DNA from: a virus
Taxonomy: Duplodnaviria; Heunggongvirae; Uroviricota; Caudoviricetes
Virus record (IMG/VR): IMGVR_UViG_2531839127_000025
Direction: 5' to 3' (one strand)
DNA: 7,904 bases
In this document: piece after piece, positions 1 to 7,904 of the stretch
Numbering within the stretch: position 1 is the stretch's first letter
Layout of the letters: every line of letters begins with the position of its first letter
Notes under the pieces: generated by a model
The model's input: only the letters and a program-made list of their open reading frames with translations
What the model was told of the DNA's origin: nothing
The model's database searches: none
Position numbers and translations under genes: made by a program

Positions 1-87
1 GTGCTGGATTACATTGACGCGGTGACGGCAATAGATACCAGCACCGCGCCTGATATTATTTGGCCTGTATTCCCTGAGACTGATTAA
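1..87 (+). CDS. Tail-fibre assembly protein (Tfa), C-terminal end only; 5' end lies outside the window
   Basis: Frame 1 from position 1 reads VLDYIDAVTAIDTSTAPDIIWPVFPETD with a TAA stop at 85-87. The DTSTAPDI-WP tail resembles the conserved C-terminus of lambda/e14-type Tfa proteins as I recall them. Position immediately before an invertase fits a tail-fibre/Tfa module. Confidence 0.65.
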   Translation: MLDYIDAVTAIDTSTAPDIIWPVFPETD

Positions 88-316
88 CCTCAATCAGTAT
101 TGGTTCGCCTTTCTCATTAATTGTTAGCTCCATGCCCTGAGGAATTTCTGTCATAGTAAAAAACCAGTTGTCCTCCGGTAATTCAATAGCCCCGGTCACG
201 TCATGAAGACCGGGGATTACTTCAGTCAAAGTAACTGGATTAAACAGGCGCACAATAAACCCTCCATGAAAAAGCATTTGATGATGGTCTGCCGTCGTAC
301 ATCTGGCAGCGGGCAT
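56..316 (-). CDS. Small 86-aa ORF in the silent cassette, downstream of the alternative fibre segment; possible non-canonical fibre chaperone, function unknown
   Basis: Minus-strand ORF with ATG at 316-314 and an in-frame TAA five codons upstream, so it cannot be longer. It converges on and overlaps the + strand Tfa end (56-87), as in convergent Sv-U / U'-S'v cassette layouts. No recognisable Tfa C-terminal motif and no strong Shine-Dalgarno. Confidence 0.35.
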   Translation of the reverse strand: MPAARCTTADHHQMLFHGGFIVRLFNPVTLTEVIPGLHDVTGAIELPEDNWFFTMTEIPQGMELTINEKGEPILIEVNQSQGIQAK

Positions 317-595
317 AAAAGCCGGTATTTGTTACCTGATCATCCACGATCATTGAAACGTGAACATTATTAGGTGTGCTCTCGTAATCCGTTCTTATTC
401 TTTCTGCGATACTGATAAAACGTGAAAGTTTAGGCAGTGCAATTGGGTAAACGACTTTAGCCAGTCCATTATCATTAGATCCACCGGTTCCAAATACTTC
501 TATTGCACCATCTGACCAGCGTACCCATGCACCATTGGCATTAGCTCCTCGCTGAATGACATATCTGGCTTCTCCCAAACCAACGTTTATGAAAA
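240..595 (-). CDS. Alternative (silent-orientation) tail-fibre C-terminal variable segment; start-less, would be fused to the constant fibre N-terminus after inversion
   Basis: Minus-strand frame is open from the crossover site down to a stop at 237-239 (ORF track 240..623; the ATGs at 623-618 lie outside the invertible segment and are probably not used). The frame runs straight through the 26-bp crossover site, encoding ...FINVGLGEA.... Gly/Asn/Ser/Trp-rich composition is typical of fibre tips. Assignment is by architecture, not by recognised homology. Confidence 0.45.
570..595. other. Serine-invertase crossover site (gix/cix/hix-like 26-bp imperfect palindrome)
   Basis: TTCTCCCAAACC-AA-CGTTTATGAAAA: two 12-bp half sites in inverted orientation around a central AA dinucleotide, following the TTnTCnnAAACC..GGTTTnnGAnAA pattern of hix/gix/cix sites. 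Lies 55 bp upstream of the invertase ATG and inside the fibre-segment reading frame. Confidence 0.7.
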
Positions 596-649
596 TGCAG
601 AAATAACGAGCAAATGGCATCATTCCTGCTTTTGTCAGAGGGATCCACT

Positions 650-1243
650 ATGCTTATTGGCTATGTACGCGTGTCAACAAATGACCAGAACACGGAATTG
701 CAGCGTAACGCGCTGGAGTGTGCAGGATGTGAGCTGATTTTTGAGGACAAAATCAGCGGCACGAAGTCCGACAGGCCGGGACTGAAAAAACTGCTCAGGA
801 CATTATCGGAGGGGGATACACTGGTAGTCTGGAAGCTGGACCGGCTGGGGCGTAGTATGCGGCATCTGGTCATTCTGGTTGAGGAGCTGCGCGAACGCGG
901 CATTAATTTTCGCAGCCTGACGGATGCCATTGATACCAGCACGCCGATGGGGCGTTTTTTCTTTCATGTGATGGGTGCCCTGGCTGAAATGGAGCGAGAA
1001 CTCATTGTCGAGCGGACACGCGCAGGACTGGAAGCGGCCAGAGCCAAAGGTCGTATTGGTGGCAGACGACAGAAACTCACCGCGAGTGAGTGGGAGCAGG
1101 CCGGGCGTTTGCTGGCTGCAGGGGAGCCACGTCAACGCGTGGCACTGATTTTTGATATTGGTCTGTCCACGCTCTATAAAAAATTTCCCGCCTCAGTGAC
1201 AAAAAATAAATTGTGTCATCCCTTAGCCAACCGGGACAAATAG
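650..1243 (+). CDS. Serine-recombinase DNA invertase (Pin/Gin/Cin/Hin family)
   Basis: Protein from ATG 650 begins MLIGYVRVSTNDQNTELQRNAL..., with the family's catalytic-serine N-terminus, the GDTLVVWKLDRLGRS and MGRFFFHVMGALAEMERELI(V)ERT blocks, and a C-terminal HTH region (RVALIFDIGLSTLYKK). AGAGGGA Shine-Dalgarno 9-15 nt upstream. The in-frame ATG at 614 has no SD and adds a non-conserved leader. Confidence 0.92.
   Translation: MLIGYVRVSTNDQNTELQRNALECAGCELIFEDKISGTKSDRPGLKKLLRTLSEGDTLVVWKLDRLGRSMRHLVILVEELRERGINFRSLTDAIDTSTPMGRFFFHVMGALAEMERELIVERTRAGLEAARAKGRIGGRRQKLTASEWEQAGRLLAAGEPRQRVALIFDIGLSTLYKKFPASVTKNKLCHPLANRDK
1212..1240 (+). promoter_or_regulatory. Candidate late-promoter activator box (imperfect dyad TTGTGTC ... 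GACAAA) upstream of FI
   Basis: Imperfect inverted repeat roughly 60-90 bp upstream of the FI start, overlapping the 3' end of the invertase ORF. P2 late promoters carry a TGT-N12-ACA dyad for Ogr; the spacing here does not match that consensus, so this is tentative. Confidence 0.2.
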
Positions 1244-1302
1244 CCTGACATCTCCGGCACAACTGAAAATACCACTCACCCATTAACCACGGAGTTAAAC
1301 GG

Positions 1303-2493
1303 ATGAGTGACTATCATCACGGCGTGCAGGTGCTGGAGATTAACGACGGCCCCCGCGTCATTTCCACCGTATCCACTGCCATTGTCGGCATGGTCTGCAC
1401 GGCCAGCGATGCGGATGCGGAAACCTTCCCCCTCAATAAACCTGTGCTGATTACCAATGTGCAGAGCGCAATTGCAAAGGCCGGTAAAAAAGGCACGCTG
1501 GCGGCATCGTTGCAGGCCATCGCTGACCAGTCAAAACCGGTCACCGTTGTCGTGCGCGTGGAAGACGGCACCGGCGACGACGAAGAAACGAAACTCGCGC
1601 AGACCGTTTCCAATATCATCGGCACCACCGACGAAAACGGTCAGTACACCGGGCTAAAAGCCCTGCTGGCGGCGGAGTCGGTAACCGGTGTTAAACCGCG
1701 TATTCTCGGTGTGCCGGGGCTGGATACCAAAGAGGTGGCTGTTGCACTGGCATCCGTCTGTCAGAAGCTGCGCGCTTTCGGGTATATCAGCGCATGGGGC
1801 TGTAAAACCATTTCCGAGGTGAAAGCCTACCGCCAGAATTTCAGCCAGCGTGAGCTGATGGTCATCTGGCCGGATTTCCTCGCATGGGATACGGTCACCA
1901 GTACCACCGCCACCGCGTATGCCACCGCCCGTGCGCTGGGTCTGCGTGCCAAAATCGACCAGGAGCAGGGCTGGCATAAAACGCTGTCCAACGTCGGGGT
2001 GAACGGTGTTACCGGCATCAGCGCCTCTGTATTCTGGGATTTGCAGGAGTCCGGCACCGATGCTGACCTGCTTAACGAGTCAGGCGTCACAACGCTGATT
2101 CGCCGTGACGGTTTCCGCTTCTGGGGTAACCGTACCTGCTCTGATGACCCGCTGTTCCTCTTTGAAAACTACCCCCGCACCGCGCAGGTGCTGGCCGACA
2201 CGATGGCTGAGGCGCATATGTGGGCGGTGGACAAGCCTGTCACCGCAACGCTGATTCGCGACATCGTTGACGGCATCAATGCCAAATTCCGTGAGCTGAA
2301 AACAAACGGCTATATCGTGGATGCGACCTGCTGGTTCAGCGAAGAATCCAACGATGCGGAAACCCTCAAGGCCGGAAAACTGTATATCGACTACGACTAT
2401 ACACCGGTACCTCCTCTTGAAAACCTGACCCTGCGCCAGCGTATTACCGATAAATACCTGGCAAATCTGGTCACCTCGGTTAACAGCAATTAA
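1303..2493 (+). CDS. FI: Contractile tail sheath protein (P2 gpFI-like)
   Basis: 396-aa ORF with GGAG Shine-Dalgarno 8 nt upstream. The MSDYHHGVQVLEINDG... N-terminus and overall sequence match my recollection of P2 FI. Followed immediately by the tube gene. Confidence 0.93.
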   Translation: MSDYHHGVQVLEINDGPRVISTVSTAIVGMVCTASDADAETFPLNKPVLITNVQSAIAKAGKKGTLAASLQAIADQSKPVTVVVRVEDGTGDDEETKLAQTVSNIIGTTDENGQYTGLKALLAAESVTGVKPRILGVPGLDTKEVAVALASVCQKLRAFGYISAWGCKTISEVKAYRQNFSQRELMVIWPDFLAWDTVTSTTATAYATARALGLRAKIDQEQGWHKTLSNVGVNGVTGISASVFWDLQESGTDADLLNESGVTTLIRRDGFRFWGNRTCSDDPLFLFENYPRTAQVLADTMAEAHMWAVDKPVTATLIRDIVDGINAKFRELKTNGYIVDATCWFSEESNDAETLKAGKLYIDYDYTPVPPLENLTLRQRITDKYLANLVTSVNSN

Positions 2494-3080: not shown

Positions 3081-3356
3081 ATGAACAAAGAAAATGTGAT
3101 TACCCTGGACAATCCGGTCAAGCGTGGTGAGCAGGTTATCGAACAGGTCACGCTGATGAAACCCAATGCCGGGACGCTGCGCGGTGTCAGTCTGGCTGCG
3201 GTCGCAAACTCCGAAGTCGATGCACTGATTAAGGTGCTGCCGCGCATGACGGCACCGATGCTGACCGAGCAGGAAGTCGCCGCGCTGGAACTGCCTGACC
3301 TTGTGGCGCTGGCCGGTAAGGTGGTCGGTTTTTTGTCGCCGAACTCGGTGCAGTAA
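3081..3356 (+). CDS. E: Tail assembly chaperone (P2 gpE-like), zero-frame product
   Basis: 91-aa ORF ending ...VVGFLSPNSVQ*. Sits directly upstream of the tape-measure gene, the conserved chaperone position. Contains the slippery heptamer near its 3' end. Confidence 0.9.
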   Translation: MNKENVITLDNPVKRGEQVIEQVTLMKPNAGTLRGVSLAAVANSEVDALIKVLPRMTAPMLTEQEVAALELPDLVALAGKVVGFLSPNSVQ

Positions 3357-3508
3357 CGTTCCCGAAAAATCTGTCGGTCGATGAGCTGATGGCGGATGTG
3401 GCAGTGATATTTCACTGGCCGCCATCAGAACTGTATCCCATGAGTCTGACCGAACTCATCACATGGCGCGAAAAGGCGCTCCGGCGAAGCGGAAACACGA
3501 ATGAGTAA
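3081..3508 (+). CDS. E': Tail assembly chaperone frameshift product (P2 gpE+E'-like), made by a programmed -1 shift at 3329-3335
   Basis: Slippery heptamer T TTT TTG at 3329-3335 in X XXY YYZ phasing relative to the E frame. The -1 frame is open from there to a TAA at 3506-3508, encoding ...VAELGAVTFPKNLSVDELMADVAVIFHWPPSELYPMSLTELITWREKALRRSGNTNE, and overlaps the T start codon at 3501. Confidence 0.8.
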
Positions 3509-7685: not shown

Positions 7686-7904
7686 ATGTTTCATTGTCCT
7701 TTATGCCAGCATGCCGCACATGCGCGTACAAGCCGCTATATCACTGACACGACAAAAGAGCGTTATCACCAGTGTCAGAACGTGAATTGCAGCGCCACGT
7801 TCATCACTTATGAGTCGGTACAGCGATATATCGTGAAGCCGGGAGAAGTCCACGCCGTAAGGCCGCACCCGTTGCCATCAGGGCAGCAAATTATGTGGAT
7901 GTAA
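7686..7904 (+). CDS. ogr: Late-gene transcriptional activator Ogr (Cys4 zinc-finger, Ogr/Delta family)
   Basis: 72-aa product MFHCPLCQHAAHARTSRYITDTTKERYHQCQNVNCSATF... with a CxxC-N22-CxxxxC zinc-finger arrangement, matching Ogr as I recall it. Follows gene D as in P2. The stop codon is the last three bases of the window. Confidence 0.9.
   Translation: MFHCPLCQHAAHARTSRYITDTTKERYHQCQNVNCSATFITYESVQRYIVKPGEVHAVRPHPLPSGQQIMWM

Follow-up and report, generated by a model that had tools for sequence, protein, structure and literature searches.

The minus-strand segment at 240-583 is very probably an alternative, unexpressed C-terminal receptor-binding tip of the tail-fibre gene H of a P2-like E. 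coli prophage, which would be switched by a PinE-like DNA invertase. This reading is carried by the anatomy of the sequence, an in-frame junction in the reconstructed inversion, the occurrence of both orientations in natural genomes and an intact invertase frame. In the Mu G, P1 C and e14 P systems, alternative fibre tips are flipped onto a constant shaft, which hedges the host range of the phage. The mechanism, its occurrence in P2-like prophages and the fold of the tip are all already known, and the evidence fits this textbook scheme. All positions refer to the window, the whole stretch of 7,904 nucleotides of viral DNA that was analysed, which by its gene content reads as the right arm of a P2-like prophage. 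Its features are as follows, with the evidence for each in brackets.

1-87, plus strand: 3' end of tfa, the assembly gene of the currently expressed tip, inside the invertible segment (Caudo_TAP)
56-253, minus strand: orf65, a 65-aa gene that directly follows the tip (ORF list)
240-583, minus strand: very probably the variable C-terminal segment of the tail-fibre protein, parked, (V)GLGEARYV...CAPV, from the crossover point to the TAA at 242-240 (translation, fusions, pN/pS, model)
570-595, no strand assigned: 26-bp crossover site on the invertase side, TTCTCCCAAACC-AA-CGTTTATGAAAA; core AA at 582-583 (uniqueness, e14 identity)
596-623, minus strand: leader MMPFARYFC, outside the invertible DNA, in the spacer between site and invertase, with ATGs at 623-621 and 620-618 (translation)
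650-1243, plus strand: 197-aa serine DNA invertase, a member of the Pin/Gin/Cin/Hin group whose Ser9 lies in MLIGYVRVSTNDQ (Pfam, PHROG, structure match)
668-739, plus strand: candidate recombinational (Fis) enhancer at the 5' end of the invertase gene (alignment to P1 cin)
1303 onwards, plus strand: sheath FI, tube FII, E/E', tape measure T, U, D and ogr (ORFs; Pfam in sister loci)

In the proposed switch, about 1.7 kb of DNA would be invertible, with the tip at the end nearest the invertase. The invertase (650-1243) would pair the site at 570-595 with an inverted site in H that lies beyond the window, about 1.69 kb to the left. Both sites would be cut at the central AA/TT dinucleotide, and the intervening DNA would be inverted. 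After the flip, the constant N-terminal ~276 residues of H would be joined in frame to the 113-residue tip via the GLGE motif. orf65 would then lie downstream of H on the same strand, where co-transcription is possible, and the present collar-type tip would become the parked one, together with its Tfa chaperone gene. Virions of two types would result, which would differ in receptor specificity, as we infer for the two tips.

The parked frame, its crossover sites and the proposed inversion

The parked fibre-tip ORF in the ORF list of the window spans 240-623 on the minus strand and encodes 127 aa. The minus-strand translation of 650-240 is *WIPLTKAGMMPFARYFCIFINVGLGEARYV...WRVYCAPV*, and the tip frame runs uninterrupted through the 26-bp site at 570-595, where it reads MMPFARYFCIFINVGLGEARYV...CAPV*. 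The site covers codons I10 to E18, and its central AA forms bases 2-3 of the Val14 codon (584-582). A further 109 codons (A19 to V127) follow the site before the stop. The first-pass annotation had proposed a frame that is continuous across the site for about 110 codons and had placed two ATGs at 623-618. Both statements are borne out by the translation, and only its stop at 237-239 has to be moved by 3 nt to the TAA at 242-240, as bases 237-239 (gga) are no stop.

The 26-bp site, TTCTCCCAAACCAACGTTTATGAAAA, is single-copy in the window, and none of 200 shuffles matched it at three or fewer mismatches. The reverse complement of contig L006 matches the window exactly from base 1 onwards, which makes the window the end of the E. 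coli contig APYK01000118.1; hence the partner site falls outside the window. The contig probably stops at base 1 because contigs break inside the invertible segment, within which L005, L006 and L007 all terminate. The sister contig L004 matches window 1-1350 without a mismatch, shows 6 mismatches in 6620 nt and reaches 1374 nt further to the left. There, at window coordinate -1116 to -1091, it carries the partner site TTCTCGCATACC-TT-GGTTTGGGAGAA inside the P2-type fibre gene H. The partner is inverted with respect to the window site and has an identical inner half-site and core dinucleotide; of the 12 positions of the outer half-sites, 5 differ. An inverted partner with the core TT against AA and the same inner half-site is found in L004 and likewise in the loci of E. 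coli TW01221 (L001), E. coli FDN-9 (L010) and NCTC8623 (L011).

The left site, which differs at 5-6 of 26 positions, was located by inspection of the H sequence together with a Hamming scan. Exact or 3-mismatch searching yielded the right site alone and missed the left one, and a generic inverted-repeat finder reported neither of the two sites in TW01221. No third crossover site of the Min or shufflon type was found at eight or fewer mismatches in the 7994 nt of L004. In each of the nine loci compared, among them Mu, the core lies 68-69 nt from the invertase. A second locus, in a sister assembly (L007, reverse complement), is 100% identical to window 4-800; this stretch contains the tip and orf65, the site with its spacer, and the 5'-most 150 nt of the invertase gene. 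In that locus, a 184-aa invertase adjoins a SIR2-domain gene. With the window, this makes two identical cassettes and two invertases, which could cross-react.

The DNA between the cores was inverted in silico, with the partner site and H taken from the near-identical L004 and from related genomes. The flipped H reads ...GKDVAGLLAYLGLGEARYVIQRG...CAPV* in frame, with orf65 directly downstream; the short form of the junction, ...GLLAYLGLGEARYVIQ...CAPV*, is also in frame. The flip joins H codon ~275 to 583-243 through the junction ...CTCGCATACCTTGGTTTGGGAGAAGCCAGATATG..., and the core occupies codon positions 2-3 both in H (c/tt) and in the parked segment (g/tt). On the other side of the flip, the collar-type tip is joined to the MMPFARYFCIFINV leader.

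The predicted arrangement also occurs naturally. E. coli FDN-9 carries it in a 389-aa H protein whose junction, LAYLGLGEARYVIQ, matches the reconstruction, and the order of its genes is H with the tip, orf65, tfa and then a collar-type tip parked beside the invertase. NCTC8623 has the same gene order, with the tip fused to a longer H, and E. coli W gave a full-length match to the reconstructed fused junction. The tip of E. coli TW01221 is parked, in the orientation of the window. Across 5426 complete E. coli genomes, the tip is present in 115; it is parked beside an invertase in 70 and fused to P2-type H in 31. It is also joined to at least three other N-terminal regions, always via (N/Y)LGLGE, and these include the e14-type 95-residue stub. 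The earlier suggestion that inversion joins a constant fibre N-terminus to this segment is supported by the L004 junction and by the natural H of FDN-9, and in the reconstruction H reads through the hybrid site into 583-243 without a change of frame.

The leader and possible translation of the parked frame

The leader MMPFARYFC is not confined to this tip. It also precedes unrelated tips in proteins P0114 and P0116, and it precedes StfE of K-12. Its pN is 0.30 against a pS of 0.46, values that cover 7 codons only. At 615-623 on the minus strand, 12 codons before the core codon, the frame encodes Met-Pro (ATGCC, or GGCAT as read on the plus strand). Met-Pro with an open frame to the site was found in nine of nine loci, from Mu, Fels-2, Cartapus, Yersinia YP3, e14 and E. 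coli P2-like prophages, and the residues in between are not conserved. This conserved Met-Pro may serve parked tips as a start codon, or it may belong to the invertase promoter. A scan for sigma-70-like promoters detected none on the minus strand ahead of the ATGs, and no clear one for the invertase. A perfect TTGACA on the minus strand at 677-672, noticed by eye, was rejected as a promoter, having no acceptable -10.

The fibre form of the tip certainly does not use the two leader ATGs. The 127-aa ORF might in addition be a protein of its own, which would be made from ATG 623 or 620 while parked and, like StfE2 of e14, would block the adsorption of other phages in the lysogen. This is unlikely, though it keeps some credit, and it is compatible with the fibre-switch role. 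Kirigo et al. 2025 (PMC12529663) treated the parked e14 ORF StfE2 as a functional protein that blocks T2 adsorption. Reconstructed at 125 aa, StfE2 consists of the pinE-proximal leader (MPFACYFFIFINVGLGE) and a gp53-like tip; its leader is nearly identical, and its site identical, to those of the window. An own protein is also favoured by the in-frame Met-Pro and open frame in all nine loci, by an AGGA 3 nt before the second ATG and by PGAP, which calls these ORFs as CDS.

Against this, the effect of StfE2 was shown with plasmid expression, and the native promoter and start of stfE2 are not documented in that study (PMC12529663). The window tip is just 27% identical to StfE2, with the shared leader counted in. 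The minus strand gave no sigma-70-like promoter, the spacing of the AGGA is poor, and the conserved GGCAT could equally serve the invertase promoter. The leader is near-neutral, and its length and start position vary in Enterobacter relatives. Moreover, the parked S' segment does not count as coding by itself in the Mu record. The statement of the first-pass annotation that the ATGs at 623-618 are probably not the real start is therefore backed in part. It stands for the fibre form, and the near-neutral leader, the varying starts in relatives and the missing promoter agree with it; the conserved Met-Pro and StfE2 speak on the other side for the parked ORF.

A more specific proposal, which is less probable again and draws on the analogy with e14, is that lysogens of this intact P2-like prophage would use the Met-Pro as the start of the parked ORF. 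The product would be a free 127-residue receptor-binding domain that takes up a surface receptor and so excludes other phages. If this were true, one inversion would toggle the host range of the virion and the defence state of the host together, and translation would genuinely begin at the in-frame ATG kept from Mu to Fels-2, which would then not be a chance by-product of the invertase promoter. The conserved leader ATG offers a simple handle on whether parked tips are expressed in lysogens.

The invertase and related inversion systems

The gene at 650-1243 encodes a serine invertase that matches Pfam Resolvase (3e-52) and HTH_7 and the PHROG 'DNA invertase' (4e-100). It aligns to the Mu Gin structure 3uj3 with an E value of 7e-95, where Ser9 falls on chain position 9, and it is 88% identical to PinE of K-12. 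Judged from its sequence, the ORF is intact, with both the catalytic Ser and the HTH domain present. The 3' part of the gene (800-1243) is a mosaic in which identity to an e14-like copy drops from 100% to ~74% by position 1035. The protein has 197 aa against 184 aa in PinE, and its C-terminal tail (...SVTKNKLCHPLANRDK) is unrelated. The stretch at 668-739 aligns without gaps to the annotated enhancer of P1 cin (cin nt 19-90), with 57 of 72 positions identical; as this stretch is coding sequence, constraint on the protein could explain the identity, which is therefore no proof of an enhancer.

The e14 P segment of K-12 (stfP-tfaP-tfaE-stfE-pinE) resembles the locus in many respects. Its pinE-proximal site is identical to the window site at 26 of 26 positions, and its spacer and leader peptide are nearly identical. 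The crossover lies in the same GLGE motif at the same codon phase, and the parked tip reads away from the invertase, as it does here. The two loci differ in the constant part, which is a truncated 95-aa remnant in e14 and a full-length P2-type H in an apparently complete tail cluster here. The tips are different members of the gp53-like group, 27% identical including the leader. The downstream partner of the tip is TfaP in e14 and a 65-aa ORF here, and the invertase differs from PinE at its C-terminal end, being 13 aa longer.

The gene order of the Mu G segment with Gin (Sc, gixL, Sv U - U' S'v, gixR, gin) is identical to the order here. gixR aligns to the window site without gaps, and each of the two sites lies 68 nt before the invertase start. 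The parked S'v of Mu reads away from gin, in the direction seen here, and has no annotated start of its own. In contrast, gix and the window site differ at 9 of 26 positions, the core is GA/TC in Mu and AA/TT here, and the fibre tips and chaperones of Mu are unrelated to those of this locus, whose host is a P2-like myovirus. The P1 C segment with Cin, and Min of p15B, share 26-bp sites, the AA core and a near-identical inner half-site with the window, although the annotated cixL and cixR of P1 have 7 of 26 mismatches to the window site. In P1, the enhancer is annotated inside the 5' end of cin, where the invertase gene of the window aligns. P1 cin reads towards its segment, with cixL overlapping its 3' end, whereas the invertase here reads away from it, as in Mu. 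Min of p15B acts in a system of six sites, and this locus has two.

A shared architecture is found in other P2-like prophages, namely Fels-2, prophages of EPEC E2348/69 and phage pro483. In these the insertion lies, as here, between the fibre-assembly gene and the sheath gene FI, and the order H - tfa - tfa' - parked H' - invertase is the same; the parked tips differ. One EPEC prophage has three sites and four variants, whereas this locus has two sites. Inversion in the P2-like prophages of EPEC has been demonstrated by sequencing (PMC4272514), and inversion of e14 has been demonstrated experimentally (PMC4272514, PMC12529663). By analogy with the identical e14 site, we infer that inversion is active in this strain.

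It is very unlikely that the segment is instead a relic of an earlier inversion system that has ceased to recombine in this prophage. In favour of such a relic, 5 of the 12 positions in the outer half-sites are mismatched, and many cassettes of this sort lie in defective prophages, e14 among them. However, the invertase ORF is intact in its catalytic Ser and its HTH domain, and the core dinucleotides and inner half-sites match exactly. Close relatives with the same sites show both orientations, and the parked tip is under purifying selection, with a pN/pS of 0.14. In addition, the e14 site, which is identical, is experimentally active (PMC4272514, PMC12529663).

The tip, its downstream gene and the surrounding prophage

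The selection value for the tip came from its homologues in TW01221 and FDN-9, which are 9% diverged and show 29 nt against 9 aa differences. A protein search returned 133 database homologues of the tip, full-length fibre fusions among them, and relatives at ~60% identity occur in Enterobacter and Xenorhabdus. The tip frame is taken as a genuine coding sequence because of this pN/pS and these homologues.

The AF2 model of the tip is an eight-strand β-sandwich with a pLDDT of 86.6. The best PDB matches of this model in Foldseek were 6ct8, 6cxb, 4mtm and 6cl5, with TM scores of 0.62-0.64 and E values of 1.6e-4 to 1.6e-3. The profile of the tip homologues matched the R1 pyocin fibre 6cxb weakly (E 1.7e-4), and in phrog_2557 it is the C-terminal end (positions 399-528 of 534) that aligns to the tip. 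The Pfam family PF21882 (Gp53-like_C) scored 18.4 bits on the tip, with an E value of 0.0033, which is below its gathering threshold of 24.9, and NCBIfam gave no match. On the strength of the model, the tip is predicted to share the fold of AP22 gp53 and the R-pyocin fibre foot, and membership in a curated family is not implied. The first-pass annotation had looked to known fibre-tip or receptor-binding domains for comparison, and the closest solved structures are indeed the R1/R2 pyocin fibre foot (6cxb, 6ct8, 6cl5) and AP22 gp53 (4mtm). The β-sandwich is common to these and to the tip, all of them are distal fibre domains of P2-type contractile tails, and sequence identity is only 16-18%. 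From the fold and profile matches it follows that the tip would be a distal receptor-binding domain, of the kind known on P2-type contractile tails. That the frame merely crosses a repeat by chance and has no coding function can be dismissed: its sole support is the lack of a curated family match above threshold, and it is ruled out by the 133 homologues with full-length fibre fusions, the confident fold model that resembles known fibre tips and the pN/pS of 0.14.

The tip is followed at once by orf65. This gene starts with GTG at 253-251, 7 nt after a GGAGG at 265-261, overlaps the stop codon of the tip and was called as a 65-aa gene in every related locus. It belongs to a family of 57-65 aa proteins that is conserved across Enterobacterales, with the consensus MRLFNPxTxTEVIPGxHDxxGAIELPEDNWFF... 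and with members in Escherichia, Enterobacter, Salmonella, Hafnia, Xenorhabdus and Erwinia, none of which has an annotated function. It matches phrog_5400 at 8e-25, and no Pfam or NCBIfam family was matched. A comparison of orf65 with the neighbouring Tfa by hhalign gave a probability of 0.1%, that is, no similarity, and the single-sequence structure model of orf65 was unusable (pLDDT 51). From its position after the tip alone, orf65 is presumed to be the partner or assembly factor of the tip. Full-text literature searches found no description of the tip-plus-orf65 cassette, and both genes are labelled "hypothetical protein" in ~115 complete E. coli genomes. The annotation would be corrected by naming the tip and orf65 together as a receptor-binding cassette. 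As a compact module of a tip and its partner with a pyocin-foot-like fold, the cassette may also be of use for retargeting P2-type phages and tailocins.

Two chimeric proteins contain parts of the tip. In P0109 of E. albertii, the leader and the first ~40 tip residues are joined to a collar-type C-terminus, which suggests recombination inside tips. P0036 consists of the N-terminus of a P2 capsid protein, the last part of the H constant region and the tip, and it is probably a deletion remnant.

At the left end of the window, the tfa fragment matches Pfam Caudo_TAP (E 2.5e-6) over profile positions 107-131 of 131, and the complete tfa gene, of 201 aa, is present in L004. The 3' ends of tfa (plus strand, stop 85-87) and orf65 (minus strand, stop 56-58) overlap convergently by 32 nt. 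The G+C content is 43-46% across the invertible segment (window 1-600) and 56-60% in the tail genes (1350-2400), a contrast that is consistent with a horizontally exchanged cassette. Among the tail genes, gene E (3081-3356) has a slippery TTTTTTG run close to its end, at 3329-3335. From this run the -1 frame stays open to ~3508 (3332-3508) and encodes a GpE-family peptide; Pfam PF06528 matches a 39-aa ORF called in L004. The slippery run and the open -1 frame are the classic programmed frameshift of P2 E/E+E'. An Ogr-type zinc-finger late activator (MFHCPLCQHAAHARTSRY...) is encoded at 7686-7904 on the plus strand and ends on the last base of the window.
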